From assembly GCA_026991225.1 (NCBI GenBank), contig JALXCB010000046.1, forward strand, positions 5,147-69,146: a stretch of 64,000 bases of DNA, read 5' to 3'. This document shows positions 785 to 63,980 of this stretch, piece after piece. The translations under genes were made by a program, and so were the position numbers. The DNA comes from Anaerolineae bacterium (GTDB lineage: Bacteria > Chloroflexota > Anaerolineae > J102). A model generated the notes under the pieces. The model ran no database searches. It was not told where the DNA came from and saw only the letters and a list, made by a program, of their open reading frames with translations. The stretch's first letter is position 1; each line of letters begins with the position of its first letter.

Positions 785-935
785 GTAAACCGGGAAGCCG
801 GTAGACCAGTAGACCGGGCGGGGCGAATCGGCCTGGTTTCCCTGATTTCCTGGTTTACCGGTTTACGGGGGTACGCAGCCCGCCATTTTCATCCATCGCG
901 ACGCGAGCTCGCCCGCCCCGGACTTGCACTGAACA
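785..935. repeat. Family B palindromic element, copy B1
   Basis: AAACCGGGAAGCCGGTAGACCAGTAGACCGG...CCTGGTTTCCCTGATTTCCTGGTTTACCGGTTT + GCAGCCCGCCATTTTCATCC tail. Confidence 0.8.
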
Positions 936-10999: not shown

Positions 11000-11160
11000 A
11001 TCTCTCACGCAAAAGCGTCAAGTCGTCAAGACAAGTTTGCAAGTCGCAGGTGGCGGGTGGCAGGTGACAGGCGGAAGGAAGCAAGTAGAGCTGCGCAAGC
11101 TGACTTGCCACCTGCCAACACTTCTTTTCCCCCTTGCGCCCTGGCGTCTTTGCATGAGAT
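11000..11160. repeat. Family G element, copy G1 (terminal inverted repeats; 3' TIR abuts the hemL stop)
   Basis: ATCTCTCACGCAAAAGCG...TTTGCAAGTCGCAGGTGGCGGGTGGCAGGTG...CTTGCCACCTGCC...CGTCTTTGCATGAGAT. Confidence 0.75.
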
Positions 11161-12449
11161 CAAATGGCGCGGAAGGTCCTGTGCGCGGCTTCGACGGTGG
11201 CGTCGATGACCGCATCGTCGTGGGCCAGGGACATGAAGCCGGCCTCGAATTGGGAGGGGGCGAGATAGACGCCCGCTTCCAGCATGGCCCGGAAGTAGCG
11301 GGCGAAGCGTGCCGTATCGCTGGCCGCAGCCGAATCCCAGTCGGTGACCGGGCCTTCGGTGAAGAAGGCGGCGAACATGGTACCCACTCGGGTCTGATAG
11401 ATGGGCACGCCCGCGGCCCGGGCCGCGTCGCCGATGCCCCGAGACAATCGCTCCGTCCGGGCCTCCAGCGTCTCCCACACACCCGGCTCCGTCAGCTTGC
11501 GCAGGGTGACGATGCCCGCGGTCATGGCCAGGGGGTTGCCGGAAAGGGTCCCGGCCTGATAGACCGACCCCACCGGCGCCACCATCTCCATGATCTCCCG
11601 CCGGCCGCCGTACGCGCCCACAGGCAGCCCCCCGCCGATGACCTTGCCCAGGCAGGTGAGGTCGGGCCGGATGCCGTAGAGGGTTTGCGCGCCGCCCGGA
11701 TGCACGCGAAAGCCGGTCATCACCTCATCGAAGATGAGCAGCGCGCCATGGGCCTGGGTTATCGCCTGCAGCCCCTGCAAAAAGCCCTCTGCCGGAGGCA
11801 CGACGCCCATATTCCCGGCCACGGGCTCCACGATGACCGCGGCGATCTCTTCGGGGAACGCGTCGAACAGCGCCCGCACCGAGTCCAGATCGTTGTAGCG
11901 GGCGACCAGGGTGTCCTGCACCATGGCCGGGGGCACGCCGGGCGAATCGGGCAGGCCCAACGTCGCCACGCCCGACCCTGCCTGCACCAGCAGCAAGTCG
12001 GCATGGCCGTGATAGCAGCCCTGGAATTTGATGATCTTGTGGCGGCCGGTGTAGGCCCGGGCCAGGCGCAGCGCGCTCATGGTGGCCTCGGTGCCCGAAT
12101 TGACGAAGCGCACCATCTCGATGTTGGGCATGAATTCGGTCACCAGCCGGGCCAACTCGATCTCCAGGGGCGAAGGAGCGCCGTAGCTGGTGCCCTTGCG
12201 AACCGCCTCGGTCAGGGCGTCGACCACGTCGGGATGGGCGTGGCCCAGGATGAGCGGGCCCCACGAGAGCACGTAATCGATGAAGCGGTTGCCGTCCACG
12301 TCGAACAGATAGGGCCCCTCGCCCCGCTCGATGAACAGGGGCTGGCCGCCCACCGACTTGAAGGCCCGCACGGGCGAATCCACCCCGCCGGGGAGCAGGC
12401 TTTGGGCCTGGGAAAAGAATTGTTGGGATCGGGTGGTGTTGAGAGTCAT
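11160..12449 (-). CDS. hemL: Glutamate-1-semialdehyde 2,1-aminomutase
   Basis: 429 aa with the classic HemL N-terminus (...[23 protein letters not shown]...) and a class-III aminotransferase fold. Confidence 0.9.
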
Positions 12450-12508
12450 AGTGCTGGATCAGGAGTGGGGTTGGCAAGTTATGACGACTAAGTTATAATG
12501 TTGAAACC

Positions 12509-12739
12509 GTGAAGGCGACGAACTATTTCATCAACAGCGTTTTGAAACGGCGTCCCTACTTGCGATGGGAATGGATCGAACGGGTAATAGCCCATCCGAT
12601 TCGCACCGAAACGCAACCAAACGGACGCATCCGCTTTTGGGGCTGGATTGAAGAAAGAGGAAAGTATTTGCGCGTTGTCACAGAAGCGGATGGAGAAACC
12701 GTTCACAATGCCTTTTTCGATCGTCGTTTCAAACCTTAG
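12509..12739 (+). CDS. DUF4258-family small protein (putative toxin of a DUF4258/DUF2283 pair)
   Basis: 76 aa, GTG start. Basic small protein immediately upstream of a DUF2283-like ORF. Confidence 0.5.
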   Translation: MKATNYFINSVLKRRPYLRWEWIERVIAHPIRTETQPNGRIRFWGWIEERGKYLRVVTEADGETVHNAFFDRRFKP

Positions 12740-12753
12740 CCAGGATTTGCATC

Positions 12754-12990
12754 ATGATCTTCGAGTATTTTCCAGATACGGACATGCTTTATATCCAATT
12801 GAACGAGGGCATCAGCGTGGAATCGGCAGAAATCGCTCCCGGCGTTGTCATCGATCTGGACGATCAGGGCAGCATCATTGGTATTGAAATCGAGGATGCC
12901 AGCGAGCGATTCAATTTGTCTCGACTGGAGCTGAAAGGACTCCCGCTGGCTGACCTCGTCGTTCGGGACAGGTTGCCTCAAGCGGCCTGA
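12754..12990 (+). CDS. DUF2283-family small protein (putative antitoxin partner)
   Basis: 78 aa. MIFEYFPDTDMLYIQL... is the characteristic DUF2283 N-terminus. Confidence 0.55.
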   Translation: MIFEYFPDTDMLYIQLNEGISVESAEIAPGVVIDLDDQGSIIGIEIEDASERFNLSRLELKGLPLADLVVRDRLPQAA

Positions 12991-13089: not shown

Positions 13090-13290
13090 TCCGAAAATAG
13101 CGTTGGCCCTCCCTGCCAAAAGTCGCCATGCCAACGTTGGGCGAGGCTGCAACGGACGTGATGAGTAATGCGTAATCCGTGAGATCGTTACGCATCACGC
13201 ATTACGCATTACGTGCTTGGCTTCCCGCGCCGCCCTGGCCGCGAGACATTTTCATCGGTATCGGCGCGCCGCCGCGCATGGCGCCTTCGT
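13090..13290 (+). repeat. Family A MITE-like element, copy A1
   Basis: ...CCGAAAATAGCGTTGG...CCAACGTTGGGCGAGGCTGCAACGG + CGTGATGAGTAATGCGTAATCCGTGAG...CGCATCACGCATTACGCATTACG hairpin + GGCTTCCCGCGCCGCCCTGGCCGCG...TTTTCATCGGTATCGGC tail. Confidence 0.8.
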
Positions 13291-13365
13291 TCTGATTTTT
13301 TCTGCGTTCATCTGCTTGCATCCGCGTTCACCTGCGTTCTCTCATCCTGGCTTCGGAACAAGGAT
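13291..13365. repeat. Family D copy D2 (overlaps the last ~15 codons and stop of hemY)
   Basis: CTGATTTTTTCTGCGTTCATCTGCTTGCATCCGCGTTCACCTGCGTTCTCTC. A D-like fragment also sits at about 13060-13090. Confidence 0.7.
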
Positions 13366-14764: not shown

Positions 14765-14840
14765 TTGAGTAATCAGTTATCAGTAAACAGTAATCAGTGG
14801 GGGCGCGGATGGATACTGATTACTGATCACTGTTTACTGA
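14765..14840. repeat. Family E copy E3 (palindrome between hemY start and hemE stop)
   Basis: GAGTAATCAGTTATCAGTAAACAGTAATCAGTG...CACTGATTACTGATCACTGTTTACTGATTAC. Confidence 0.7.
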
Positions 14841-15908
14841 TTACTTCCGGTTAAATTCATGGACCATTGCGACGACGGCCCGCACGTTCTCCACGGGCGT
14901 GTGCTGCAAGATGCCGTGGCCCAGGTTGAAGATGTGGCCCGGTCGACCCGCCGCGCGGGTCAACACGTCCCGCACCTGGTTTTCCAGCTCGGGCAGGGGG
15001 GCGAAGAGTGCGGTGGGATCGAGATTGCCCTGCACGGCCACGTCGTCGCCCAACAGCGCCCATCCTTCATCCAGAGGGATGCGCCAATCCAGGCCGATGA
15101 CATGCCCGCCCGCGGCCTTCATCTCCCCTAGCAGCGTGGTTGCGCCCACGCCGAAGTGGATGACGGGGACGTCGGCCCGGGCCATGAGGGTTTGTAGAAT
15201 CTGGCGGGAATAGGGCTGGACGAAACGGCGGTAATCCTGAGGATTCAGTGCGCCCACCCAGGAATCGAAGAGCTGCAAGGCCTGTGCGCCCGCGTCGGCT
15301 TGCGCCAGCAGATAATCGATGAGCACGGGCGTGAGTTTTTGCATGAGGGCGCGCCAGGCGGCGGGCTGCCCGTACATGAGCTTCTTGGTTTCGACGAAGT
15401 TGCGGGACGGCCCGCCCTCGATAATGTAGGCGGCCAGGGTGAAGGGCGCTCCTGCGAAACCGATGAGGGGAACGTCCCGACCATCCAACTCCGTCCGCAC
15501 CAGGCGGATGGCCTCGTACACATGCCCCAGGTCGGCCCGCACGTCCACTGGCCGGAGCGCGGCCACGTCGTCGGGCGAGCGCACGGGGTTGTGGATGACG
15601 GGCCCGCGGCCGGGGACGAATTCCAGCTTCAGGCCCATGGGCGGCAGGGGCAGGAGGATGTCGGCGAAGAGGATGGCCGCGTCCACGCCCAGGGTGTCCA
15701 CGGGCTGGAGGGTGATCTCGGCCGCGACCTCGGGCCGGGCGATCATCTCCAGGATGCTCTTGTGCTGGCGGCGGATGGCCTGGTATTCGGGCATGTAGCG
15801 CCCGGCCTGGCGCATGAACCAGACGGGCGTCGTGTCAGTAATCAGTCTTCGAGTGGCTCTCAGAAATCTCGATGTTGGCTCGTTAGTCATCATTGTCAGG
15901 GTTCTCAT
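14841..15908 (-). CDS. hemE: Uroporphyrinogen decarboxylase
   Basis: ...TPVWFMRQAGRYMPEY... is the canonical HemE N-terminal motif. Start may be Met6/Met7 of the listed ORF. Confidence 0.9.
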   Translation of the reverse strand: MRTLTMMTNEPTSRFLRATRRLITDTTPVWFMRQAGRYMPEYQAIRRQHKSILEMIARPEVAAEITLQPVDTLGVDAAILFADILLPLPPMGLKLEFVPGRGPVIHNPVRSPDDVAALRPVDVRADLGHVYEAIRLVRTELDGRDVPLIGFAGAPFTLAAYIIEGGPSRNFVETKKLMYGQPAAWRALMQKLTPVLIDYLLAQADAGAQALQLFDSWVGALNPQDYRRFVQPYSRQILQTLMARADVPVIHFGVGATTLLGEMKAAGGHVIGLDWRIPLDEGWALLGDDVAVQGNLDPTALFAPLPELENQVRDVLTRAAGRPGHIFNLGHGILQHTPVENVRAVVAMVHEFNRK

Positions 15909-15919
15909 TGGAAAAGTAA

Positions 15920-15974
15920 TCAGTCATCAGTCCAACGGTTTGTTCCTCACTGATTACTGCTTACTGATAACTGA
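15920..15974. repeat. Family E copy E4 (between hemE start and the rSAM stop)
   Basis: GAAAAGTAATCAGTCATCAGTCC...CACTGATTACTGCTTACTGATAACTGATTAC. Confidence 0.65.
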
Positions 15975-17129
15975 TTACTTCGCCTCGCGAAAGGCTTCAG
16001 GAACGTACACACACGCCGGGTCAGTTTCCAGATAATCGCCGGTGACGCCATAGGCCCGGCCGCGCTGGCCGCCGCACACGTCGCGGAATTCGCAGACGCC
16101 GCAGCGGCCCTTCAGTTTGTCGGGGTCCCGCAGGTCTTTGAATAAAGGATGGTTGCGATAGACCTCGACCACGTCATCTTTGCGGACGTTTCCGGCCACG
16201 ATGGGCAGGAAGCCGGAGGGTTCGATATTGCCGATGTGGGAGATGAAGAGGAAGCCATTGCCGTCGTTGACGCCTTTGGTGGGGCGGTTGAGGCCGTCCG
16301 CGTACTGGAAGCCCGCGCCCTGGAAGGCGATGGGCGCATCTTCGCCCAGTTCCTGGCGCTTGCGCTGGATGGCCACGCGGCGATACATGGGCGCGGCCGT
16401 GGCTTTGACGTCGAAAGGCGCTTCTTGGGCCAGGTCATACAGCCAATTGAAAATGCGCTCGTGCTCCTCGGGGGAGATCATCCAGTCGATCTGGCCCCGG
16501 CCCGTGGGCACCAGGAAGAAGACGGACCACTGCACCGCGCCCACCTCTTCGATGAAAGGCACCATCTCGGGCAGGATGTGGGCGTTGTGTTTGGCGACGG
16601 TGGTGTTCACCTGCACGCTCAGGCCCACGTCATGCGCCCGATGCAGGATGTCCATGGTGCGCTGCCAGGAGCCCGCCACCTTGCGGAAGTCGTCGTGGAT
16701 GGCGGGGCGGGGCGCATCCAGGCTAAGGGCGATGCGGCGGATGCCCGCGTCCCGGGCCTTTTGCAGCCGCTCTTTGGTGGGCAGAGCCGTGGCCGTGGGC
16801 GTCAGGGAGCAGCGCAGGCCCTTTTCAGTGGCGTAGGCGATGAGATCGAACAGGTCGCGGCGCATCATGGGGTCGCCGCCGGTGAAGATGAGGATGGGAT
16901 GGTTGCCGAACGCGGCCAGCCGATCGATGAGCTGAAAGCCTTCCTCGGTGGTGAGTTCCAGGGGATGGCGTTGGGGTTGGGCGTCGGCCCGGCAGTGGAC
17001 GCAGGCGTAGGCGCAGGCCCGGGTCACTTCCCAGGCGATGGTGAAGGGCGCTTTGTCGAAGTCCGCGTGCACCATGCGCCGGTCGTGGTAGGTGCGTTCG
17101 GCTGTGGCGGAGGGGGTGAGGTTGGACAT
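15975..17129 (-). CDS. Radical SAM/SPASM-domain protein, AhbD/NirJ-like, embedded in the heme operon
   Basis: 384 aa. CAYACVHC (CxxxCxxC). C-terminal Cys cluster ...KGRCGVCEFRDVCGG...DPACVY (SPASM-type auxiliary cluster motifs). Sits between hemB and hemE on the same strand. Confidence 0.7.
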   Translation of the reverse strand: MSNLTPSATAERTYHDRRMVHADFDKAPFTIAWEVTRACAYACVHCRADAQPQRHPLELTTEEGFQLIDRLAAFGNHPILIFTGGDPMMRRDLFDLIAYATEKGLRCSLTPTATALPTKERLQKARDAGIRRIALSLDAPRPAIHDDFRKVAGSWQRTMDILHRAHDVGLSVQVNTTVAKHNAHILPEMVPFIEEVGAVQWSVFFLVPTGRGQIDWMISPEEHERIFNWLYDLAQEAPFDVKATAAPMYRRVAIQRKRQELGEDAPIAFQGAGFQYADGLNRPTKGVNDGNGFLFISHIGNIEPSGFLPIVAGNVRKDDVVEVYRNHPLFKDLRDPDKLKGRCGVCEFRDVCGGQRGRAYGVTGDYLETDPACVYVPEAFREAK

Positions 17130-19474: not shown

Positions 19475-19876
19475 ATGCGCCTTCTGCTCGACACACACAT
19501 TTTTATCTGGTGGGCGGATGAGCCAGAACGTCTTGATGGACGGCTGCTCGACGCTCTGCTGAACGCTGAAAATGAATTGATTTTGAGTGTTGTCAGTCTT
19601 TGGGAAATGCAGATCAAAGCGCAATTGGGGAAATTAACGTTCCAAAGGCCGTTGAAGGAGCTCGTTCATTTACAACAAAGCGTCAACGGGTTGCAACTGC
19701 TTCCTGTAACGTCAAATCACGTGTTTTTGCTGGATGAACTGCCACTCATTCACAAGGATCCATTTGATCGGTTGATCATCGCTCAGGCGTTGGCGGAGAA
19801 TCTGATCCTCGTGAGTCACGATAGAGTATTCGAGGACTATCAGGTCCTCCTGTGGAAGCCCGATATGCAGGGATAA
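19475..19876 (+). CDS. vapC: PIN-domain ribonuclease toxin (VapC family)
   Basis: 133 aa. MRLLLDTHIFIWW...DPFDRLIIAQA...LVSHD carries PIN-domain acidic residues. Confidence 0.8.
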   Translation: MRLLLDTHIFIWWADEPERLDGRLLDALLNAENELILSVVSLWEMQIKAQLGKLTFQRPLKELVHLQQSVNGLQLLPVTSNHVFLLDELPLIHKDPFDRLIIAQALAENLILVSHDRVFEDYQVLLWKPDMQG

Positions 19877-20831: not shown

Positions 20832-20972
20832 CCAGGTTGGCGCGGGAAGCCACTCCCGTAATGCGTGATGCGTAAGGAGCTCACGGATTACGCATTACGC
20901 ATCACGTCGGTTGCAGACTCGCCCACCGTGGGCTTCGAGTCATTTTTGCAAACCAACGCTATTTTCGGAGCA
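20832..20972 (-). repeat. Family A copy A2 (inverted orientation)
   Basis: Same modules in reverse complement. Its terminal CCGAAAATAGCGTTGG module supplies the hemA stop codon. Confidence 0.8.
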
Positions 20973-22224
20973 GATAGTCTTCCAGGGCGAAGAGGTCCTG
21001 AATGGCGCGGGCGTAGGGTTCGGCGTTGCCGCGGGCGGCCTGGGCCTTAAGCTGCAAGGTGGGTTCATGCAGGAGTTTGTTGACCAGCCGATGGGCGAGG
21101 CGGGTCATCTGATCGGCGACGATGGTATCATCGTGCGGAAGCTTGCGCAAGGCTTGTTCCAGCTCGGCCCGGGCCAGATCGTTGGCCTTGCGGCGCATGC
21201 CCACCAGCACCGGCAGCACTTGGCGGCTTCCCAGCCAGGCCATATAGCCATCCGCCGCCTCGGCGACCATGACTTCCACCTGAGGAATAGCGGCCTGCCG
21301 CTCCTCCAGGTTGTGCTGCACGATCTCCTGAATGTCATCCAGCACAAAAAGCTCCACGTGGGGAAGGCTCGCGACCGCGGGATCGATGGCGCGCGGCACG
21401 GAAAGATCCACCAGGATGAGAGGACGGGCCCGGCGGGGCGTCATGGCGGGCGTGATCAGGAAGCCGTCGCCCCCCGCGGCCACGATCACGGCGTCGGCCC
21501 AGCTCAGGCCATCTGGCAGTTGGCTGAGGGGGTGGGCAGTCGCCTGGACGCGGTCAGCCAGGGCCTGCGCCCGGGCCAGAGTGCGGTTGTAGATGCGGAT
21601 GCGGGCGTCGCTGAGCCCGGCCGCGTGCTTGGCCACCAGCGACCCCATCTCCCCCGCGCCCACGATGGCCAGACGCTTGCTCTGACTCAAGGCCGCATGA
21701 CCATCCACCCAGCGCATGACCACCGACCCGATGGAGACGGCGTTGCGGCTGATGGGGGTTTCGGTGCGGGCCCGCTTCCCCGTCTGAATGGCCGTGCGGA
21801 AGAGCTCGGCCAGTTGCGGGCCGATGGCGTGCACTTCCAGCCCCATCTCATAGGCATCCCGCACCTGGCCCAAAATCTGTGGTTCGCCCAGCACCATGGA
21901 ATCGAGCCCGCAGGCGACGCGGACCAGATGGTCGACGGCATCCCGCCCCTGCCAGACATACAGATAGCGTTGCAACTGGCTGGCGGAGAATCCCGTTCGG
22001 GCCTGGAAGAAGTCGCGGAGGAGGCCCATAGCCGCAGACGCGTCCGAGGCCGCCAGATACCACTCCGTACGATTGCAGGTGGAGAGGACGGCGGCCTCAT
22101 CGATGCTGGGGTGGGCCGTAAGTTGGATCAGGGCCTCTCGGGCAGCCTCGCCTTCGATGGCGAAGGCCTCGCGATGGGCCAGCGGCGTGGTGCGGTGGTT
22201 CAAGCCAAGGCAAAGGATCGTCAT
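20959..22224 (-). CDS. hemA: Glutamyl-tRNA reductase
   Basis: Start at MTILCLGLNHRTTPLAHREAFA... ...LSTCNRTEWY... catalytic Cys motif. NADPH-binding GAGEMG. Stop codon lies in the terminal module of an A-family repeat. Confidence 0.9.
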   Translation of the reverse strand: MTILCLGLNHRTTPLAHREAFAIEGEAAREALIQLTAHPSIDEAAVLSTCNRTEWYLAASDASAAMGLLRDFFQARTGFSASQLQRYLYVWQGRDAVDHLVRVACGLDSMVLGEPQILGQVRDAYEMGLEVHAIGPQLAELFRTAIQTGKRARTETPISRNAVSIGSVVMRWVDGHAALSQSKRLAIVGAGEMGSLVAKHAAGLSDARIRIYNRTLARAQALADRVQATAHPLSQLPDGLSWADAVIVAAGGDGFLITPAMTPRRARPLILVDLSVPRAIDPAVASLPHVELFVLDDIQEIVQHNLEERQAAIPQVEVMVAEAADGYMAWLGSRQVLPVLVGMRRKANDLARAELEQALRKLPHDDTIVADQMTRLAHRLVNKLLHEPTLQLKAQAARGNAEPYARAIQDLFALEDYLLRK

Positions 22225-22413: not shown

Positions 22414-22441
22414 AGAAAAAGCCCGCCGAAAATCGGCGGGT
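22414..22441 (-). terminator. Rho-independent terminator downstream of the N-formylglutamate amidohydrolase gene
   Basis: Minus strand reads ACCCGCCGATTTTCGGCGGGC followed by TTTTTC. Confidence 0.6.
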
Positions 22442-23349: not shown

Positions 23350-23547
23350 GGTTCCATGCGACGCAAGGGGTGGGATATGAGAAAAGGTGCGACTTGACCG
23401 AAATGAGCTGGCATTCCGATAGGTCGCACCTGTTTTGTATACGAACAATCGAAGCCAATTGTTCCTCAACGTTCTTTTCAGGCGACACGGGCAGCAACCC
23501 GCCGTTACGGATGAAAACGCCCCGCGGCCGGGGCCGTGCAGGAAGCC

Positions 23548-23650: not shown

Positions 23651-23666
23651 AGCGATCATTCGATTT

Positions 23667-24854
23667 TCATAGCAGCTCGATGGCCATAGCCACGGCCTCG
23701 CCGCCGCCCAGACAGAGCGCGGCCACGCCCCGCCGCCCGCCCGTCTGGCGCAGGGCGTAGATCAGGGTGGTGAGGACGCGGGCGCCGCTGGCTCCCAAAG
23801 GATGCCCCAGGGCGATGGCCCCGCCGTGGATATTGACCTTCTCCGGGTCTAGCCCCAGTTCGATGATGTTTTGCAGGGATTGGGCGGCGAAGGCTTCGTT
23901 CAGCTCGAACAGATCGACGTCGGCCAGGCTCCAGCCGATGCGGTCCATGAGGCGGCGGATGGCGTGGGGGGGCGCGGTGAAGACTTTGAGGGGCTCGACC
24001 GCGGCGTGGGTGTAGCCGATGATGCGGGCCAGGGGCGTCAGGCCATGGGCTTGAGCGTACTCGGGATGGGCGATAACCGTGGCGGCTGCGCCGTCGCTGA
24101 TAGGCGGCGCATTGCCCGCGGTGACCGTGCCCCCTTCCTCGAACGCGGGCCGCAGTCGAGCCAGGGCCTCCAGGCTCGTGTCCGGGCGGATGGGCTCATC
24201 CCGATCCACGACCACCTCCTTGCGCTTCTGTTTCACCGTGATGGGAACCATCTCATCTTTGAACAGCCCCTCCTCGGTGGCCCGAACCGCGCGCATGTGG
24301 CTCTGATAGGCGAACTGGTCCTGCATCTCGCGAGTGATGTTGAAAGTGCGGGCGATCCATTCCGCCTCGTTGCCCATGTGCAAGCCGTTGAAAGGATCGA
24401 TGAGGCCGTCATGCACGGTAGCGTCCAGCACCTCGCCATTGCCCAGGCGGTAGCCGAAGCGGGCTTTGGGCAGCATGTAGGGCCCCATGCTCATGGCCTC
24501 CATTCCCCCTGCCACATAGAGCCGACCATCGCCGGCGCGGATGGCGCTGGCCGCGAACATGACCGCGCGCAGGCCCGAACCGCACACCTTGTTCAGGGTG
24601 ACCGCGCCCACGCTCTCGGGCAGGCCGCCGAAGACGGCCGCCTGGCGGGCCGGGGCCTGGCCCGTGCCCGCGGGGATGACCTGCCCCATGAACACTTCCT
24701 CGACCTCGGCGGGATCAATGCCCGACCGTTCCACCACCGCCCGGATGACGTGCGCGCCCAGTTTGGGCGCAGGGATGTTGCTGAGCGCACCGCCCAACCG
24801 GCCGCCGGGCGTGCGGGCTGCGGCAAGGATGACAGGATAAATCGGTTGGTTCAT
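23667..24854 (-). CDS. Acetyl-CoA C-acetyltransferase (thiolase II)
   Basis: Start at [18 protein letters not shown]... Thiolase active-site regions (...NKVCGSGL..., ...[12 protein letters not shown]..., C-terminal ...[13 protein letters not shown]). Confidence 0.85.
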
Positions 24855-24867
24855 GACAAGGCTCCTG

Positions 24868-25065
24868 TTCCGAAAATAGCGTTGCATTGGTTTACAAAAA
24901 TAACTCGAAGCCCCCGTTGGGCGGGTCTGCTACAGACGTGATGCGTAATCCGTAATCCGTGAGGTCATTACGCATCACCCATTACGCATTACGTAGCTGG
25001 CTTCCCGCGCCGCCCTGGCCGCGGGGCGTTTTCATCGGTATCGGCAAACGTCGCTCGCGGCGCAT
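24868..25065 (+). repeat. Family A copy A4 (fills the whole thiolase-to-pdp spacer)
   Basis: All three modules present. Confidence 0.8.
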
Positions 25066-26378: not shown

Positions 26379-26404
26379 GGGAACTCCTGCTATGAAAATA
26401 GATT

Positions 26405-26562
26405 TGGAGGACGCAGATAACGCAGATTGAAACGGATGAACGCAGATGATAAAGAAAAAATCTGCGAAAATCATCTGCGAAAATCTGCATTGCGAAGCAT
26501 CCGTGTCATCTGCGCTCTCATTTTCATTGGTATTGGCGCGGGCTTGCCCGCCATCGGACTGC
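26405..26562. repeat. Family D copy D3
   Basis: GACGCAGATAACGCAGATTGAAACGGATGAACGCAGATGATAAAGAAAAAATCTGCGAAAATCATCTGCGAAAATCTGCATTGCGAAGCATCCGTGTCATCTGCGC. Confidence 0.75.
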
Positions 26563-26574
26563 TATAAAAATTGA

Positions 26575-26740
26575 TTTGGCAGACCGGGAAACCGGTAGAC
26601 CGGTAGACCAGTAAACCGGGTGGGGGAGCGAATCGGCCCGGTTTCCCTGGTTTCCTGGTTTACCGGGTTACGGGACTACGGGGCTACGCACCCCGCCATT
26701 TTCGTCCGTGTCGGCGAGCTTGCGCTTGGGCCGCCTGCGT
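26575..26740. repeat. Family B copy B2
   Basis: GACCGGGAAACCGGTAGACCGGTAGACCAGTAAACCGGG...CCCGGTTTCCCTGGTTTCCTGGTTTACCGGG + ACGCACCCCGCCATTTTCGTCC tail. Confidence 0.8.
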
Positions 26741-26900: not shown

Positions 26901-27027
26901 TTATTGCGTATTTGTCGCTCAAGTATACTGCAACCCGAGAGAAATCATAAAAACCGCGCCGCGCTTCAAGCGCAGACTTCGATTTGTAGATTCCCTCACA
27001 TTTGCATACAATAGGCGTCAATTCTCG

Positions 27028-27200
27028 TAACTACTAAGGTGTCGCCGCCACTTTTTGCCACGAAGACACGAAGAAAAGCGAAGGCGCGACGTATTTTTCT
27101 TTATTTTTCCTTCGTGTCTTCGAAAAACTTCGAGCCTTCGTGGCAAGACGTTTTCAGCGCCGAATCAGGCTGCCTGAGCAGTTACGCCGCCACCTTCCTC
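27028..27200 (+). repeat. Family C element, copy C1
   Basis: GTAACTACTAAGGTGTCGCCGCCACTTTTTGCCACGAAGACACGAAGAAAAGCGAAGGCGCGACGTATTTTTCTTTATTTTTCCTTCGTGTCTTCGAAAAACTTCGAGCCTTCGTGGC... is an imperfect long palindrome. Confidence 0.8.
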
Positions 27201-29119: not shown

Positions 29120-29171
29120 TCCATGATCTGTCCAACCGCGAATGCTTCCTCATCGAGATGGATGAAAATGG

Positions 29172-29262
29172 CAACCGGTAGACCGGAAAACCAGTAGACC
29201 GGGAAACCATGCGTAGACCGGCTATGCCAGGTCTACTGGTCTCCTGGTTTCCTGGGTTATCA
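29172..29262. repeat. Family B copy B3 (inside the decarboxylase operon gap)
   Basis: CCGGTAGACCGGAAAACCAGTAGACCGGGAAACC...GGTCTACTGGTCTCCTGGTTTCCTGGG. Confidence 0.75.
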
Positions 29263-29280
29263 AGAGCGTCTCCCTAAACT

Positions 29281-32954: not shown

Positions 32955-33062
32955 GAACCTGGTAGACCTGTAGGCCGGTAGCCCGCAAACCAGGAAACCA
33001 AGCGAAGACCCCTCAGATTACCGATCTACCGGTTTCCTGGTTCAACGGCTTCCTGGGTTATC
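32955..33062. repeat. Family B copy B4 (abuts the tsaC stop codon)
   Basis: CCTGGTAGACCTGTAGGCCGGTAGCCCGCAAACCAGGAAACC...CTACCGGTTTCCTGGTTCAACGGCTTCCTGGG. Confidence 0.75.
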
Positions 33063-33675
33063 GAGTCATTTTCAAGGCCTCCGCAATCTGCGGCCAGGTA
33101 ATGGGGCCGGGGCGCAGGATTTTAAGCGGTTCCGAGGTCAGATCGAGGATGGTGGAGGGCTGGCCGCCCGGCGCGCGGCCGCCGTCGACGATAATCGCCA
33201 CCCGGCCTTCGAGCTGGTCCCGGGCCTCCTCTGCGGTGAGGGTTGGGGGCTGGCCCGACAGGTTGGCGCTGGTAACGGCCAAAGGGCGGTCCACCGCTCG
33301 CAGAAGCGCCAGGGCCAGGGGATGATCGGGGATGCGCAGGGCCACGGTGTCGCCGCCCGCGGCCACGATGGGGGACAGGGCCTCGGTTTTGGGCAGAATG
33401 ATGGTGAGGGGCCCGGGCCAGAACGCCTCGGCCAGAGCCCAAAAACCGGGCAGGGGCCGGGCCACGTCCGTCGCCCGATCCGGCTCCGCCACCATGACGG
33501 GGATGGCCATGTGGCGAGGGCGGTTTTTGGCCGCGTAGATGCGGGTCACGGCCTCGGCGTTTTCGGCCAAAGCGGCCACGCCATAAACGGTGTCCGTGGG
33601 GAAGACGACGAGCTGGCCTCGCCGCAGCGCTTGCACGGCTTCGTCGAAGGCATCGGGCGGGATGACGCGAGTCAT
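33058..33675 (-). CDS. tsaC: L-threonylcarbamoyladenylate synthase (TsaC/YrdC/Sua5 family)
   Basis: 205 aa. ...VFPTDTVYGVAA... and ...TSANLSGQPP... YrdC motifs. Confidence 0.8.
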   Translation of the reverse strand: MTRVIPPDAFDEAVQALRRGQLVVFPTDTVYGVAALAENAEAVTRIYAAKNRPRHMAIPVMVAEPDRATDVARPLPGFWALAEAFWPGPLTIILPKTEALSPIVAAGGDTVALRIPDHPLALALLRAVDRPLAVTSANLSGQPPTLTAEEARDQLEGRVAIIVDGGRAPGGQPSTILDLTSEPLKILRPGPITWPQIAEALKMTR

Positions 33676-42984: not shown

Positions 42985-43160
42985 TTTCCTTGTAAGATGT
43001 AACTGCTAACGTACTGGACTTTAGGCCGCCAAAAGCCACGAAGGCTCGAAGTTTTTCGAAGATACGAAGGAAACATAAAGAAAAATACGTCGTGCCTTCG
43101 CTTTTCTTCGTGTCTTCGTGGCAAAAAGTGGCGGCGACACCTTAGTAGTTACTGTAAGAT
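42985..43160 (-). repeat. Family C copy C2 (inverted; abuts the BNR gene start)
   Basis: Reverse complement of C1 with more than 85% identity. Confidence 0.8.
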
Positions 43161-48454: not shown

Positions 48455-48612
48455 ATGTAACTGCCTAAGGTCGCGCCGCCGCTTTTTGCCACGAAGATAC
48501 GAAGAAAACGAAGGCACAACGTATTTTTTATTTTATCCCTTCGTGTCTTCGAAAAACTTCGAGCCTTCGTGGCTTTTGGCGGCCTAAAGTCCAGTACGTT
48601 AGCAGTTACGAA
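48455..48612 (+). repeat. Family C copy C3
   Basis: TAAGGTCGCGCCGCCGCTTTTTGCCACGAAGATACGAAGAAAACGAAGGCACAACG...CGAGCCTTCGTGGCTTTTGGCGGCCTAAAG. Confidence 0.8.
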
Positions 48613-52894: not shown

Positions 52895-52927
52895 GCGGTG
52901 CTCCTTGGGTGAGAGATGAGAGAAAAT

Positions 52928-52986
52928 GACGATGGACGATGGCGCTAAGCCTTATCGTCCACCGTCCATCGTCTATCGTCTGTTTT
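52928..52986 (-). terminator. Hairpin terminator immediately downstream of the P-type ATPase gene
   Basis: GACGATGGACGATGG...CCACCGTCCATCGTC inverted repeat followed by a U-rich tract on the minus strand. Confidence 0.45.
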
Positions 52987-55628
52987 CAAACCAGCTTCCT
53001 CAGCGCGCCCATGGTGGTCTTGCTGGCCAGATAAGCCTGACCGCGGCGGCTGCGCAGCCATTTGTAGGTCAGCATCTTTACCGCGTCGTTGAACACGAAC
53101 CAGGTGAGAGCATAGGCCCACATCAGCAGGCCCAGCTTCCAGCCGATGGGTTCCATGAACCAACCATAGACTGCAAACAGCGTGCCGATCACACGGGTGC
53201 TGAAGGTGGCTCCAAACAGAATCCAGGAAGGATAAGGCTTCTTCCAGAACCAGTCATCGATGCGGGTGTTGTAAATCGTGCCGTGCCCGGCAATCACCAG
53301 TTTAGCGAAAAACAACGATTGGATCAACGGCCTGGGCAGGTGCAGTTGCATCATGATGAAAAACAGCAGAAAGGAGGAGATGACGCCCGCAATGCCCAGC
53401 ATGGTGGAAATGGTGAGCATCTCTCGCATATCCCAACGCACAGGCTTCTTGTCCACCTTCGTGTTATCGTAGGCGATGGACATGATGGGGATATCGTTGA
53501 GCAGGGCCAGGATGATGATCATCAGGGCGGTGACAGGATAGAAATTGAAGACCACAATGCTCAACGTCATGAAGAAGATGACCCGCAGGGTCTCGGCCAC
53601 GCGGAAGGTGGCGTAGCTCTTCATGCGCTCGAAGATGCTGCGGGAGAGTTTGACCGCGTCGTTGATGACGGCCAGACCGGGCGTGGTGAGAATGATATCC
53701 GCGGCGGAGCGGGCCGCGTCGGTGGCGTTGGCCACGGCGATGCCGCAGTCCGCTTTCTTCAGCGCCGGCGCATCGTTGACGCCATCGCCGGTCATGGCCA
53801 CGATGTGATCCGCCTTTTGTAGGGCCTTGACGATGAGGAACTTGTCCTCGGGCACCACCTCGGCGAAAATCTCGGTCTGCTCGATCTTCTCGATGATCTC
53901 CGATTCATGGACGCTGACCAGGCCCTTGCTCAGGTTCTGCGTGTCGAAGCTCTCTTCGACCTCTTTCACCACCTCTTCCGCGAATTTGCGGGCCGCGTCC
54001 GTATCCGCGTCGGGGTGCAACTTCTTGTAGATGGCTTCGGCCAGGATTTCAGTGAGCAGGATGACGCCCTCGTTTTTGCTGCTGCGCAGCTCTTTGGAGC
54101 GCATGGCCGGGCCCGTCAGCCCCAACATGCGCCCGATCTCCCGGGCGATGGCGATATTGTCCCCGGTGATCATCTTCACCCGCACGCCGTGGGCGCGCAG
54201 GTCCTCGATGACGGCCTTGGAGTCGGGCCGCGGCGGGTCCAGCATGGGGATGAGGCCGATGAGCTCCACCTGATCGCCCACCTTTTTGGCCACGGCAAGG
54301 GTGCGATACCCTTTGCTGGCGAAATCGTCCACCATCTTCTCCAGCTTTGCCACCTGGTCTTCGGGCAATTTGGCCATCTCGATGACCACCTGCGGCGCGC
54401 CCTTGATGGCGACAAAGGTCTCATCACCGCGCCTGATAACCGCCTCGGTGCGCTTGCGAATGGGATCGAAGGGCGTGAAGTGGGTTTGCTCGTACTCCTT
54501 CCAATCCAGATCAGGATATTTTTGCTTCAGATAGTTGTAAATGGCCATGTCGATGGGGTCCTGGTTTTCCAGTCTGGAAGCCAGCACGCCCATCAGCAGC
54601 AACTCCCGCTCGTCATGCCCATCGAAGACCGTGGGCTGGGTCACCTGCAGCTTGTTCTGGGTAAGCGTGCCCGTCTTGTCGCTGCACAGCACATCCACGC
54701 CCGCCAGCTCCTCGATGGCCACCAGACGGCTGACGATGGCCTGCCGCTTGGCCAGATTCAGCGCTCCCACGGCCATGACCACCGACAACACCGCGGGCAT
54801 GGCCACAGGAATGGCCGCCACCGTCAGCACCAGGGCGAAACGGATCAACTCCAGAACCTCCTCGCCCCGATAAATTCCCACCATGACGATGAGGATCACC
54901 AGCGCCAGGGTGAGCAGGATGAGGTAATCTCCTACCTGAATCACCATCTTCTGGAAGTGGCTGCTCTCCTCCTGCTGGGCCTGGGCCACCAGCGACGCCA
55001 CCTGCGAGAAATTGGTGTTCATGCCGGTGTTCACCACCACGGCCAGCATCTCGCCCTGCTTGACGATGGTGTTGGAGTATGCCACGTCGCCCGGCTTCTT
55101 GCTCACGGGCAGGGATTCACCGGTCAACGCAGACTGATCCACCTGAATGTAATCGCCCTGGATCAATTTCACATCCGCAGGAATGATGTCGCCGATCTTG
55201 AGTTTGATGATGTCGCCCGGCACCAGCTCTTTGGCCGGGATGGTCTTGAACTCGCCATCCCGCAGCACAATGGCCTGCTGAGCCAGCTTCTGCTTCAATG
55301 ATTTCAACGCGCTCAACGCCCGCCCTTCCTGATAGAAGTCCAGCCCGGCGTTGACCAGCAGCATGATGATAATGATGATGAAATCTTCCCATTTCTTGAC
55401 CGCGGCGGAGAGGATGGCCGCCACCTCGATCATCCAGGGAATCGGGCCCCAAAAACGACGAAAGATGCGGTGCCACAGGGGCTCCTCCTTTTCTTCGATG
55501 GCGTTGGGGCCATAGTGCTGCAAGCGGTTGCGGGCATCTTCCGAGCTGAGGCCCTTTTGCGGGTCGGTTCCCAGCTCCCTCAGGGTTTCTTCAATGGATT
55601 GGTTTTTGTATGCGTCGGTTTTCTTCAT
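52986..55628 (-). CDS. P-type ATPase, type III (plasma-membrane H+-ATPase / MgtA-like)
   Basis: 880 aa. DKTGTLT phosphorylation site, TGES, GDGVNDAPAL. N-terminal cation-ATPase domain. Confidence 0.85.
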   Translation of the reverse strand: MKKTDAYKNQSIEETLRELGTDPQKGLSSEDARNRLQHYGPNAIEEKEEPLWHRIFRRFWGPIPWMIEVAAILSAAVKKWEDFIIIIIMLLVNAGLDFYQEGRALSALKSLKQKLAQQAIVLRDGEFKTIPAKELVPGDIIKLKIGDIIPADVKLIQGDYIQVDQSALTGESLPVSKKPGDVAYSNTIVKQGEMLAVVVNTGMNTNFSQVASLVAQAQQEESSHFQKMVIQVGDYLILLTLALVILIVMVGIYRGEEVLELIRFALVLTVAAIPVAMPAVLSVVMAVGALNLAKRQAIVSRLVAIEELAGVDVLCSDKTGTLTQNKLQVTQPTVFDGHDERELLLMGVLASRLENQDPIDMAIYNYLKQKYPDLDWKEYEQTHFTPFDPIRKRTEAVIRRGDETFVAIKGAPQVVIEMAKLPEDQVAKLEKMVDDFASKGYRTLAVAKKVGDQVELIGLIPMLDPPRPDSKAVIEDLRAHGVRVKMITGDNIAIAREIGRMLGLTGPAMRSKELRSSKNEGVILLTEILAEAIYKKLHPDADTDAARKFAEEVVKEVEESFDTQNLSKGLVSVHESEIIEKIEQTEIFAEVVPEDKFLIVKALQKADHIVAMTGDGVNDAPALKKADCGIAVANATDAARSAADIILTTPGLAVINDAVKLSRSIFERMKSYATFRVAETLRVIFFMTLSIVVFNFYPVTALMIIILALLNDIPIMSIAYDNTKVDKKPVRWDMREMLTISTMLGIAGVISSFLLFFIMMQLHLPRPLIQSLFFAKLVIAGHGTIYNTRIDDWFWKKPYPSWILFGATFSTRVIGTLFAVYGWFMEPIGWKLGLLMWAYALTWFVFNDAVKMLTYKWLRSRRGQAYLASKTTMGALRKLV

Positions 55629-60080: not shown

Positions 60081-61928
60081 TCACTCCACCGTCACGCTCT
60101 TGGCCAGATTGCGGGGCTGGTCCACGTCCGCACCCCGCCACACCGCGATGTGATAGGCGAAAAGCTGGAGAGGAACCACGGTGAGGATGGGCAGCAACCA
60201 GGGCGACGCCTCGGGCACGACGATGAGGTCATCGGCCTTCTCGGCGATGACGCGGTCGCCCGGATTCACCATAGCGATGACTTTGCCCCGCCGGGCCTTC
60301 ACCTGCTCCACCTGACTCACCATCTTCTCGTAAACGCCATCGCGCGGGGCCAGCGCCACAGTGGGCATGGTCTCGTCGATGAGGGCGATGGGCCCGTGCT
60401 TCATCTCCCCCGCGGGATACCCCTCCGCATGGATATAGCTGATCTCCTTCAACTTCAGCGCCCCCTCCAGGGCGATGGGATATTGCAATCCCCGGCCCAG
60501 ATAGAGGAAATCCTCGTAGTTGGCGTAGGCAATGCCCAACTTACGGATTTCCTCATCCCTGGCCAGCACGTCTCCCAGCTTTTGCGGCAGCAACGCCAGC
60601 TCGTGCGCCAGCGCCAGCGACGCGTCCTGGTCCAGCAGGCCCCGCTGTTGGGCCAGGAACATGGCCAGGAGGAGCTGGTCTACCACGGACGAGGTGAACG
60701 CTTTGGTGCTGGCCACGCCGATCTCGGGCCCGGCCTGCATGTAGATGACGCCATCGGCCACGCGCGCGGCCTGCGACCCCACCGCGTTGACGATGGAGAG
60801 CAGGAACGCGCGCTGGCGGCGGGCCTCCTCCATCGCGGCCAGGGTGTCCACCGTCTCGCCCGACTGGGTGATGGCGATGAACAGGGTGCGGTCGTCCAAG
60901 ATGGGCTCCCGATAGCGGTATTCGGAGCCGTAATCCACCTCCACGGGCAGGCGGGCCAGGCGTTCGATATAGAACTTGCCCATCAGGCCCGAGTAGTAGG
61001 ACGTGCCGCAGGCCACGATGGTCACCCGGTCGATGCGTTGGACGATCTCGGGCGTGAGGTTGGCTCCGGGCAGGGTGACCTCGCCCGTGACGAAGTCGAT
61101 GCGCCCGCGGATCGTATCGGTGAGCGCGTTGGGCTGGTCGAAGATCTCCTTTTGCATGAAGTGGCGGTAGGGCCCTTTGGCCGCGGACACCGGGTCCCAG
61201 GGGATGGCGATGATCTCCTTGCCGGGGATGGGCTCGCCCTCCAGCGTACTGAAGGCCGCGCCCTCGCGGGTGACCACAGCCATCTCCCGATTTTCGAGGA
61301 AGGACATGCGCCGGGTGTGTTCGAGGATAGCAGGGATATCGGAGGCCAGGAACATTTCGTCCTCGCCGTGCCCCACGACCACCGCGCCCGCGTTACCCAG
61401 GCGGGCGGCGATGAGCCGGTCGGGCTCGTAGGTGCTGAGAACGACCACCGCGGACGGGCCATGCAACAGGCTTAGCGCCCGCCTCACCGCCTCTTCCAGG
61501 TCCTCGGTCTGGGTGAATTCCCGGTGGATGAGCTGGACGATGACCTCGGTGTCGGTGTCCGAGGCGAATTCGTATCCCTGGCTCATCAACTCCTCTCGCA
61601 GGGGCAGGAAGTTCTCCACGATGCCGTTCTGCACCACGACGATGCGCCCGTCTTTGGCCCGGTGGGGATGGGCGTTGTAGGCGGTGGGCGGGCCGTGGGT
61701 GGCCCATCGCGTGTGTCCGATGCCGATATGCCCGTTGGTGGGCGCTTCGGCCACGCGCTGACGCAGGTTGCTGAGCTTGCCCGCGTCCCGGCGGATCTCG
61801 ATCTCGTTCCGGTTGTTGATGATGGCCAGGCCCGCGGAATCGTACCCGCGGTATTCCAGCCGTTGTAAGCCTTCGAGGATGATGGGGGTGGCCTCTCTCG
61901 GTCCGATATAACCAACAATGCCGCACAT
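60081..61928 (-). CDS. glmS: Glutamine--fructose-6-phosphate aminotransferase (isomerising)
   Basis: Start at MCGIVGYIG (N-terminal Cys nucleophile). Two SIS domains. C-terminal ...KSVTVE. Confidence 0.92.
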   Translation of the reverse strand: MCGIVGYIGPREATPIILEGLQRLEYRGYDSAGLAIINNRNEIEIRRDAGKLSNLRQRVAEAPTNGHIGIGHTRWATHGPPTAYNAHPHRAKDGRIVVVQNGIVENFLPLREELMSQGYEFASDTDTEVIVQLIHREFTQTEDLEEAVRRALSLLHGPSAVVVLSTYEPDRLIAARLGNAGAVVVGHGEDEMFLASDIPAILEHTRRMSFLENREMAVVTREGAAFSTLEGEPIPGKEIIAIPWDPVSAAKGPYRHFMQKEIFDQPNALTDTIRGRIDFVTGEVTLPGANLTPEIVQRIDRVTIVACGTSYYSGLMGKFYIERLARLPVEVDYGSEYRYREPILDDRTLFIAITQSGETVDTLAAMEEARRQRAFLLSIVNAVGSQAARVADGVIYMQAGPEIGVASTKAFTSSVVDQLLLAMFLAQQRGLLDQDASLALAHELALLPQKLGDVLARDEEIRKLGIAYANYEDFLYLGRGLQYPIALEGALKLKEISYIHAEGYPAGEMKHGPIALIDETMPTVALAPRDGVYEKMVSQVEQVKARRGKVIAMVNPGDRVIAEKADDLIVVPEASPWLLPILTVVPLQLFAYHIAVWRGADVDQPRNLAKSVTVE

Positions 61929-61944
61929 GGAAGTGGCTCCTTGT

Positions 61945-62075
61945 TCGGAAAACAGTGTGATTTGCAAACGCTCGCCAGCCCAACGTTGGGCGAGGCGACA
62001 ACGGGCGTCAAACATCAAACATCATGCGTCATGTCCTGACGTTTGACGAAGTCGGTTTGCCGCGCGAACGCGGGG
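61945..62075 (+). repeat. Family A copy A7 (inside the glmS leader, between ribozyme and start codon)
   Basis: GCTCGCCAGCCCAACGTTGGGCGAGGCGACAACGGGCGTCAAACATCAAACATCATGCGTCATGTCCTGACGTTTGACGAAGTCGG. Confidence 0.75.
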
Positions 62076-62104: not shown

Positions 62105-62335
62105 TGGATCTTGACTTCTGCCACTGCCCCTTCCCTTGTCCCGCGGTCGCCCGTGGGCTTTCGGGTGAGACTTTGCGCGTTCCCATGACGTCCGGTGGTG
62201 GCTGCACCGGGAAGGCATCCGCCGATCTCTCGATTTTCCCACTGGCCCGAGCCAGGGTTAGGCCGCCCTTGCGGACGACAACCTTCTCCTCGTCAACTGC
62301 GCCGCCCCTTGCGGGCGCAGTCCAGGCGCTGCGTC
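62105..62335 (-). ncRNA. glmS ribozyme (GlcN6P-responsive self-cleaving riboswitch) in the glmS 5' leader
   Basis: The minus strand reads AGCGCCUGGACUGCGCC...GACGAGGAGAAGGUUGUCG...CGGCGGAUGCCUUCCCGGUGCAGCC... These align with the B. subtilis glmS ribozyme core (AGCGCCAGAACU..., CACGAGGAGGAGGUUAUCG, CGGCGGAUGCCUCCCGGCUG). The 3' boundary is approximate. Confidence 0.7.
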
Positions 62336-62679
62336 ATGGTGGTTGGGAACGTAGGTTACATGTTCGGGTCAGGCCATAAACAAGCCTCCATTCAGTAGTG
62401 AAGAGTAAAGATTAGCATCTTATCAGTGACATTTTAGCCCGCTGAGCTAAAAGTTACACAGAGCTCACAGAGCTGCTTTGGAGCTTCACAGAGATTCATT
62501 GATTATTTTTTCTCTGTGTAACTCTGTGTTCCTTCCTGGTTCCAGCCTGTCCGGGTTAGGATTGAGGATAGGAGGATTATAGAGGAAGGACGGGGGATTG
62601 GCAAACCGCATCGCGTCCGTATGACAGGCTATTGGCCTGGTAGGCCGAGAACGGGGCAGTGAGCGCCCCCAGCTCCGGT

Positions 62680-62725
62680 TTCCCGGTCTACCGGTCTTCG
62701 GGTTTCCTGGTTTCCCCATCCTGTT
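62680..62725. repeat. Family B partial copy B5 (overlaps the histidine kinase C-terminus)
   Basis: CCGGTTTCCCGGTCTACCGGTCTTCGGGTTTCCTGGTTTCCCC. Confidence 0.6.
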
Positions 62726-63980
62726 TTCCAGGCAACGTGAACCAGAAGCGCGCGCCCTGGCCCGGTTCACTCGCCACGCCGATCTCGCCGCCGTGGGCCT
62801 CGACGATGCGTTTGGCGATGGCCAGGCCCAGGCCCGACCCGCCCGTGGCGTGGCTACGCGACTTCTCGCCCCGATAGAACTGGTCGAAAATGTAGGGGAG
62901 GTCGTCGGCCGCGATGCCCTCGCCCGTATCGATAACCTCCACCAGCGTGACTGACCCCTGCCGTCGGGCCTGCACCCGCATGTCGCCGCCCGTGGGCGTG
63001 TGACGGATTGCGTTGGCGATGAGATTCGCCAGCACCCGCTCGATCTTCTGTACATCCACCCGCACCAGGTCGGGACCAGCCGCCGAGTGGCCCGAAAGCG
63101 CCACGCCCTGGCGCGCAGCCGCCTCCGCGAAGCGGTTAACCGTGTCCGAAATGAGGTCGTTCAGATCCACCGGCTGCAAACTCAGCTCCAGCGCGCCCGC
63201 GTCGAACTGGGCCAGGTCGAAGAGATCGTCGATGAGCAGGGAGAGGGATTGGATATCCCGCTGGGCTGTGCGCAGATAGCGCTGCTGCATAGCCGGTTCC
63301 TCCACCAGGCCGTCGGCCAGGGCTTCAATCAGGGCCTGGATGGAGGCCAGGGGTGTGCGCAGGTCGTGGCCCGCCCAGGCGATGAGATTGCGCCGCATTT
63401 GGTCTAACTCCCGCTGCTTGCGGTCGGCTTCTTGCAGGCGCTGGGCCATGAGATTGAAAGTGCGGGCCAGCTCCGTCACCTCGTTGGAGCCCCGCTCCGG
63501 CGCCCGCACGTCGTAACGTCCGCGGGCGATGGCTCGGGCCGCGTCGTTCAGCTCCCGAATGTAATCGGCCACTGCGGTGGCGAAGAAATATCCCAGCGAC
63601 ATGGCAATGCCCCCGGCGAAGATGAGCAGCACCGTGGCCAGAAGCAAATCGTGTGCGCTGGCGAACATGAGCCGGGCCGTGAGCCACACGTTGAGAAAGG
63701 TGAGGATGCTGGCCAGGGCGTAGCCGCCCATGAGCAGCCAGCTAATGTGCGGGGCCTTCTGGGCCAGGCCCGTGCGGTAGGCCACATACCCGGCCAGGAT
63801 GGAGATGCCCGCGGTGATGCTCAGGAACAGCGCCATGGCCCGAAAATCGGCCACGGGCGGCTGCATGAGGAGCCAAAACAGCCCCAGGGCGATGATCATC
63901 GTCAGGATCACGCCCGCGATGAAGCGCAGGGTCAGGGAGGTCGAACGGGTGTGGGTGGAGGTAGTGAGGGTAGAGTGCAT
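62688..63980 (-). CDS. Sensor histidine kinase (2 TM + HAMP + HisKA + HATPase_c)
   Basis: 430 aa. ...[14 protein letters not shown]... H-box. ...[19 protein letters not shown]... G2 box. The C-terminal ~13 codons overlap a B-family repeat half-site. Confidence 0.85.

Follow-up and report, generated by a model that had tools for sequence, protein, structure and literature searches.

Palindromic intergenic repeats at gene 3' ends as a probable source of C-terminal tails and stop codons in an Anaerolineae genome

Extragenic palindromes of the REP/BIME type are abundant in proteobacteria, often lie just after stop codons and vary in presence between strains. REPs are single, imperfect palindromes of 20-40 nt with a conserved GTAG-type head; they are mobilised by RAYT transposases, whose genes are flanked by REPs. 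Remodelling of protein C-termini by repeats is already known from the QMITEs of Coxiella, from ERIC/RU-1 and from the TAACTGA repeats, and the repeats described here represent no new class of mechanism. In Coxiella burnetii, many functional genes share the last 1-50 bp of their 3' ends with the palindromic, non-autonomous repeats QMITE1 and QMITE2 (Wachter et al., 2018, PMC5896051). EnhC of the Dugway strain takes its C-terminal 33 aa from QMITE2, and an indel in a sister strain puts the stop codon just before the same element (PMC5896051). Fusion of the ERIC/RU-1, RU-2 and RU-3 repeats to a gene 3' end removes the normal stop codon and extends the protein past its conserved domain (Delihas, 2007, PMC2759123). 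Point mutations within these repeats set the end of translation, and a 16-nt overlap adds 4 aa that are missing in orthologues (PMC2759123). The TAACTGA heptamer direct repeats of Beggiatoaceae, Cyanobacteria and Bacteroidetes carry forward stops in all three frames and therefore overlap only the very end of the upstream ORF; 13 genes have their stop codon inside such repeats, and no Chloroflexi are reported (MacGregor, 2015, PMC4679880). Rickettsia palindromic elements (RPE) are joined to proteins by in-frame translational fusion (reviewed in PMC10969869).

We compared these systems with the repeats found in a 64 kb stretch of Anaerolineae DNA (the window). As in the Coxiella QMITEs, tails would change by two routes, insertion and stop drift. 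Unlike the QMITEs, which form two defined families in a pathogen, the repeats of the window fall into many families whose hairpins consist of 7-10-nt units in tandem; one terminal module is common to them, and they saturate the intergenic space. Fusion of a repeat to a gene 3' end and the setting of the stop by point mutations within the repeat are shared with ERIC/RU, but ERIC offers a long open frame with tails of about 35 aa, whereas the elements of the window close all frames within a few codons and are unrelated in sequence. The E family (CAGTAAT/CTGATAACTGATTAC) is similar to the TAACTGA repeats in sequence and logic; however, TAACTGA occurs mostly as direct repeats just upstream of start codons, while the units seen here form inverted hairpin arms with flanking modules. 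RPEs lie in frame inside genes and are fully read through, whereas only gene ends are affected here and translation would stop within the element. We found no description of these repeats in Chloroflexi/Chloroflexota in the literature, and we know of no parent IS for them.

Our preferred reading, to which we assign a probability of roughly 0.8, is that a MITE/REP-like palindromic superfamily saturates the intergenic regions and that protein tails are reshaped by gain and loss of elements and by drift of stop codons. An element would consist of an outer, inward-directed module (approximately CGATACCGATGAAAATG) around a hairpin with arms of 7-, 8- or 10-nt units in tandem. By the first route, an element would land on or beside a gene's 3' end, the native stop would be displaced and translation would enter the element up to the first in-frame stop; such elements would be gained and lost between close relatives. 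By the second route, a triplet of an abutting element's module would often be the gene's stop, and a point mutation in it (TGA to CGA or GGA, TAG to CAG) would shift termination to the next element-borne stop. We infer the directions of the individual events, the translation of the tails, their selective near-neutrality and the mobility mechanism.

More than 20 non-coding copies of 60-250 nt occur in the 64 kb, the short multi-copy form of MITEs. The outer module has six matches with up to three mismatches against 0.17 expected, flanks the hairpins of families A, B and D, is always directed toward the hairpin and in many cases has a small GCGAGC-N4-GCTCGC stem in front of it. Its variants include CCGAAAATAG and TGAAAACAG, and its sites are:

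13247-13263, minus strand, outer module
23503-23519, plus strand, outer module
25027-25043, minus strand, outer module
26519-26535, minus strand, outer module
26697-26713, minus strand, outer module
29154-29170, plus strand, outer module
884-893, minus strand, outer module

The module is found on both strands, at both ends of B copies and at right or left ends of A and D copies, giving the inverted ends of a MITE; G elements have TCTCAYGCAAAG/CTTTGCRTGAGA ends. Arm units differ between hairpin families (heptamers in A, octamers in B, decamers in D), and since families with unrelated arm units share the outer module, the comparison suggests one putative superfamily with interchangeable cores. 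Presence or absence differs between the window and its relatives at the histidine kinase (HK) site (L001/L002), between tsaC and the HMG-CoA reductase (HMGR) gene (L090), between hemL and the anti-sigma gene (L087), at ahbD (L086) and at hemE (L087), a polymorphism that is typical of MITEs. With inverted ends and with presence that differs between relatives at five sites or more, these candidate mobile elements fit the MITE/REP-like non-autonomous type. They are unlike RAYT-associated REP/BIMEs in that the hairpins, at 60-110 nt, are longer and built from tandem units, GTAG occurs only in the B family, and neither a Y1 transposase or RAYT nor any other transposase was found in the window. They also differ from intrinsic terminators: the elements lack T-runs, lie between divergent genes as well, and include the unfolded HK copy described below, and canonical GC-stem/T-run terminators occur separately from them at 2531-2572 and near 22440. 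The elements were mapped conservatively by self-BLAST coverage (E < 1e-4), a cut-off too strict to reveal the overlaps at HK and tsaC. In the relatives' loci compared, strict patterns for the B octamer and for the module gave no matches, so the B family is not seen in these fragments.

A family-A-type hairpin of CGTAATG heptamers was also observed in Ca. Caldilinea saccharophila (L011, 10995-11075), 13 nt after the hemB stop. The hemB gene of this organism has only 67% identity, and the A-type hairpin style would therefore be class-wide, since it is present after hemB in Caldilineaceae at this low identity. A hemB scan of the genome collection was of little use for junctions, the best match being 68% identical among the matches listed.

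At the HK gene, an element-encoded tail in the window contrasts with an element-free site in a 97%-identical relative.

62688-63980, minus strand, HK gene (HAMP-HisKA-HATPase_c), 430 aa, from the ORF and Pfam domain matches
62688-62726, minus strand, HK tail of 12 aa, element-encoded, with its TAG stop, which is part of a GGTAGACC unit; missing in the 11 closest orthologues
62613-62726, minus strand, HK-site segment of about 114 nt, missing in L001/L002 (window against 97%-identical relative)

The initial annotation had ascribed the HK C-terminus to a B-family half-site. Indeed, the string that it quoted, GGTTTCCCGGTCTACCGGTCTTCGGGTTTCCTGG (62677-62710), consists of arrayed GGTNNNCC octamers. 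This octamer pattern (three units, up to two mismatches) was matched 23 times in the window, where 2.2 matches are expected, and always at one of five B-family sites (784-875, 26578-26688, 29169-29264, 32961-33065 and 62677-62716). Across 39 nt the HK arm shows 82% complementarity to the one at 29170-29208, and it can be aligned with all eight other B arms, including the short A-rich motif GGAAAACAGGATGG that precedes the octamers. Within the segment of about 114 nt we recognised a residual terminal module (GGAAAACAGGATGG, 62716-62729) and the arm of octamers (62677-62719), together with a loop-like GC hairpin and a partner arm that has decayed. RNA folding of the HK copy (146 nt) paired no partner arm (z = -1.25), though the decayed partner GTTCTCGGCCTACCAGGCC is still visible downstream; 'half-site' is a fair term for it. 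A role of the HK site as a terminator was dropped because folding shows that this copy is not a hairpin; folding of the B4 element at tsaC was only modest (z = -1.52).

The tail lies beyond the conserved domain, as the Pfam HATPase_c match stops at residue 418 of 430. None of the 11 closest orthologues (77-97% identity) has it: their C-termini read FWFTLPG, TLL, TLPM or TLPGPA and their lengths are 414-445 aa, mostly 414-420, with one truncated entry of 369 aa. Compared with them, the HK of the window is longer by 12 aa. At the DNA level the stop directly follows LPG, LPM or LL in five of six relatives and comes two codons later, after LPGPA, in L148. The junction reads TTGCCGGGCTGAGTGAAAAGATGCCGGGTTTGC in the 97%-identical L001 and L002, and TTGCCTGG-AAAACAGGATGGGGAAACC...(about 114 nt)...GGACGC-GATGCGGTTTGC in the window; the flanks are otherwise homologous and continue into the conserved glmS ribozyme. 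As close orthologues are tail-free and L001/L002 are without the segment of about 114 nt, the tail is apparently derived, and the element is polymorphic at this site. Either the window lineage may have acquired it or L001 may have lost it. The 'empty' site of L001 itself has GTGAAAAGATG, which is module-like, and comparison of filled and empty site shows a possible GATG flanking the extra segment on both sides, which is only suggestive of a target-site duplication, as well as 7 nt that differ at the stop.

Metagenome assemblies are commonly broken or wrongly joined at repeats, and the longest-ORF starts in the window are clearly over-extended into elements, so we considered whether misassembly or miscalled bases at repeats of a metagenome-assembled genome, or faulty gene calls, might have produced the extended frames. 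This is highly implausible. The exact 430-aa HK recurs on 8 contigs, drawn from assemblies at NCBI, JGI and ENA that represent different samples, with 3' regions that differ by single SNPs only (about 1 per 860 nt), and the tailed allele is thus no product of misassembly. The hemY and hemA forms of the window likewise recur exactly in other assemblies, and 3' ends are set by stop codons, not by choices of a gene caller.

The glmS ribozyme (62165-62341, minus strand) precedes glmS (60081-62018), scores 41.3 bits where the gathering score is 37, and was the sole hit of an Rfam scan of the window, in which the repeats matched no family. Its presence accounts for the conserved block of the HK-glmS spacer that is common to L001. 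A second segment missing in the 97%-identical L001 lies between the HK element and the ribozyme (about 62385-62550, minus strand) and consists of a hairpin of CACAGAG-type units and AT-rich sequence.

At hemY and hemA the repeats seem to have stayed in place while the stop codon moved.

13296-13361, minus strand, D-family terminal module and arm (D2), encoding the hemY tail LFRSQDERTQVNADASR with its TGA stop at 13308-13310
20845-20973, minus strand, A2 element filling the hemA-hemC spacer, also at the same site in L088 and L089

The hemY tail had been placed in D2, and its last 17 codons (13311-13361) align with the D-family copies at 2462-2545 and 26385-26470. In the window hemY ends in ...SLFRSQDERTQVNADASR, and close orthologues (85-91% identity) end in ...KLFDR, ...RGDEQD, ...RVFRGR or ...ERLF, which makes the window protein longer by roughly 8 to 16 aa. 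The stretch TTGTTCCGAAGCCAGGATGAGAGAACGCAGG... of hemY aligns with TTGTTCCGAAAATAGGATTAGGGAACGCAGATG... of D1, and the tail matches D1 and D3 base for base; the in-frame AAATAG of D1/D3 is AGCCAG in hemY. Read in the hemY frame, the canonical module would thus stop at TAG (...LFRK), whereas hemY of the window continues to a TGA in the decamer arm. In L087, hemY uses the second TAG of this module as its stop (CAGGATTAGGAC); in L086 its stop comes earlier, with a comparable element about 170 nt downstream. The module residue is common to the window and L087, and the stop has apparently moved inside it. Tails of HK and hemY contain the homologous peptides GKQDGET and RSQDERT on unrelated proteins because both read the same module (YGAAAACAGGATGRGRGAAC). 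In L149, from an independent, lower-GC lineage, a hemY tail GTRMNADFTDSNNF comes from the left arm plus the loop of a ACACGGAT-type hairpin that lies in a 47-nt spacer.

Two insertions of small opposite-strand genes were observed in the hem cluster. A DUF4258-like/DUF2283-like pair lies between hemL and hemY (12500-12990, plus strand), the DUF2283 assignment resting on analogy with L087, and a PIN-like ORF lies between hemD and hemC (19475-19876, plus strand). These labels come from visual inspection and from a comparison to L086 and L087.

For hemA, whose true start is MTILCLG, the stop and the last two codons had been assigned to the terminal module of A2, and CTC CGA AAA TAG is found inside CCGAAAATAGCGTTGG (20953-20968). 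This 16-mer has an exact copy at 13091 and a copy with one mismatch at 24870, each beside an A-family hairpin (four matches with up to three mismatches in the window against 0.44 expected). Relatives mostly end in LEDYLN or LEDYLL (419 aa), one in LEDYLFRK, and the window protein in LEDYLLRK, a gain in length of 2 aa (RK). An A-family hairpin occupies the hemA-hemC spacer in the window, in L088 (82%) and in L089 (72%). The 3' end reads CTC CGA AAA TAG in the window and CTT TGA AAA TCG in L088, a stop/sense change inside the module. At both hemA and hemY, then, relatives carry the terminal module at the equivalent position, and point loss of a stop within it would have changed the tail. The window provides unusually clean natural examples of stop-codon drift enabled by resident repeats.

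Inspection of all gene ends in the window revealed at least four cases (hemE, ahbD, thiolase and P-ATPase) beyond the five genes listed at the outset.

14768-14847, E1 hairpin of CAGTAAT heptamers; hemE stop TAA at 14841-14843 in the first unit
15914-15981, E2 hairpin; stop TAA of the ahbD-like radical SAM gene at 15975-15977 in the first unit
23656-23669, minus strand, terminal module TGAAAATCGAATGA of the A6 element, beginning with the TGA that is the thiolase stop
52923-52988, hairpin of GACGATG units; TGAAAACAGACGATAG begins with the TGA of the P-type ATPase (52986-52988)

Both hemE and the ahbD-like gene end with AAG TAA in GAAGTAATCAGT, the first unit of a CAGTAAT-heptamer hairpin. The hemE product ends in HEFNRK in the window, in HEFGVISKQ in L086 and in HEFTSA in L087; window and L086 read one arm in different frames, and hemE of L087 is without such an element. 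A string identical to the TGAAAATCGAATGA of the thiolase gene gives the hemA stop in L088. In addition, the TAG of the DAO gene abuts a G-type half arm. Altogether, about 10 of the 37 gene ends in the window have their stop inside an element or no more than 3 nt away from one.

At hemL and tsaC, the effect of the elements on the protein is apparently small.

11012-11159, G1 element with TCTCAYGCAAAG-type inverted ends, between the convergent anti-sigma and hemL genes
32961-33075, B4 hairpin element between tsaC and the HMG-CoA reductase gene, with the end TTGAAAATGACTCGATAACCC at 33052-33075, minus strand

The hemL stop was said to abut the G1 TIR, and no base separates the G1 end ...GCATGAGA from the TGA (11160-11162). 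L087 has no spacer here, the stops of hemL and of the anti-sigma gene sharing 4 nt, compared with a 198-nt spacer including G1 in the window; the window hemL is 3 aa shorter than that of L087 and ends differently. The tsaC stop, read initially as lying in B4, is a TAA (33058-33060) within GGGTTATCGAG, a string common to the B3 copy, and the B4 end TTGAAAATGACTCGATAACCC holds this stop and the last codons. L090, with an 80%-identical tsaC, is without B4 and has the same tsaC length and the same TAACC at the stop; the C-termini are paired as ...ILQGNP against ...ALKMTR. The tsaC stop may thus be ancestral and element-derived only in appearance, and remodelling at tsaC would be minor or unproven. 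The hemL and tsaC sites are too diverged from the relatives for target-site duplications to be defined.

The overlaps with stops and codons proposed in the initial annotation were correct at all five genes (HK, hemA, hemL, tsaC and hemY). Its proposal that the elements remodel C-termini is supported by the comparison of orthologue ends, and in none of the five genes did repeat-free relatives have the same C-terminal residues. Insertion at 3' ends, which it took to be recurrent, is only one of the routes, as hemA and hemY would have changed by loss of a stop. On the alignments at hand, tails appear to change both via element gain and via stop-codon drift inside resident elements, and such drift matters as much as fresh insertion.

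We wondered how much of this could reflect passive crowding, in which elements fill short spacers, their ends touch stop codons by geometry, overlaps arise by chance and proteins remain unchanged. Elements fill nearly every intergenic region, and abutment alone is therefore to be expected; they are also present between divergent genes (B1, 784-875; B2, 26578-26688), about 17 of the 37 gene ends have an element within 12 nt, and tsaC is as long as its element-free orthologue. As the sole explanation, crowding is nevertheless very unlikely: the HK, hemY and hemE tails consist of 6-17 codons of unmistakable repeat-copy DNA, beyond the conserved domain and missing in the shorter close orthologues, and the stop triplets used belong to the conserved repeat consensus of copies away from genes. 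On our preferred reading, the last residues of many proteins in these Chloroflexota genomes, and in the many metagenome bins related to them, would be repeat-derived.

Stops within the elements are strongly oriented. The arms are tandem 7-, 8- or 10-nt units with TAG, TAA or TGA facing inward (GGTAGACC, CGTAATG/GTGATG, CAGTAAT and CAGATGAACG). Across 21 hairpins the median distance to a stop was 8 codons inward from either side, 31 outward from the centre and 38 from random positions in the window (Mann-Whitney p about 6e-7, with frames and copies that are not independent). In families A, B, D and E every frame is closed to inward reading; families F (CACGAAG) and G (GCAGGTGGC) are open both ways. 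Since the unit length is not a multiple of three and the stop triplets face inward, all three frames close within a few units, which explains the short tails of 2-17 aa. As the palindrome is identical from both sides, a gene entering from either side meets the same stop-rich sequence.

Such an asymmetry might also point to selected function, with 'stop plus hairpin' cassettes acting on expression through mRNA 3' stabilisation, termination or ribosome stalling near the stop; inward-facing stops would then be a selected safeguard. Expression roles of this kind have been proposed for REP sequences close to stop codons. The conservation of the terminal module across families, the A element kept at the hemA-hemC site in relatives with 72-100% protein identity and the similar heptamer hairpin directly after the hemB stop of Ca. 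Caldilinea saccharophila would agree with it. Comparable ideas were put forward for QMITEs at 3' ends in Coxiella (PMC5896051). We regard this explanation as unlikely, because many copies lie between divergent genes, where there is no 3' end, the F and G families open in both directions, the HK copy does not fold as a hairpin, canonical terminators occur separately and presence or absence varies among near-identical genomes. A broader idea is somewhat easier to entertain, though still doubtful: the elements may be a previously undescribed superfamily, widespread in Anaerolineae and Caldilineae, with a conserved, stop-bearing inward module round interchangeable hairpins, closed to entering translation and open to leaving translation, and thus a selected 'translation-proof' cassette or factor-binding array rather than junk. 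If so, the C-terminal tails would be the visible by-product of mutation of a module stop.

Openness to outward translation has a further consequence, namely that N-termini are easily over-called and ORFs start in elements. Longest-ORF starts lie inside elements at 22272, 23580, 24887, 26474, 32988, 43039 and 62018 (hemA, FGase, thiolase, PyNP, HMG-CoA reductase, BNR protein and GlmS, respectively), and in these seven genes the family models begin 15-80 residues later. Annotation, the ends of orthologue alignments and the inference of domain boundaries should account for both repeat-derived tails and spurious longest-ORF starts.

Finally, the F family (CACGAAG/CTTCGTG) is present in three long copies (27027-27144, 43035-43152 and 48465-48609) that are 92-97% mutually complementary. 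They are the least diverged repeats in the window, and translation is open through them in both directions.
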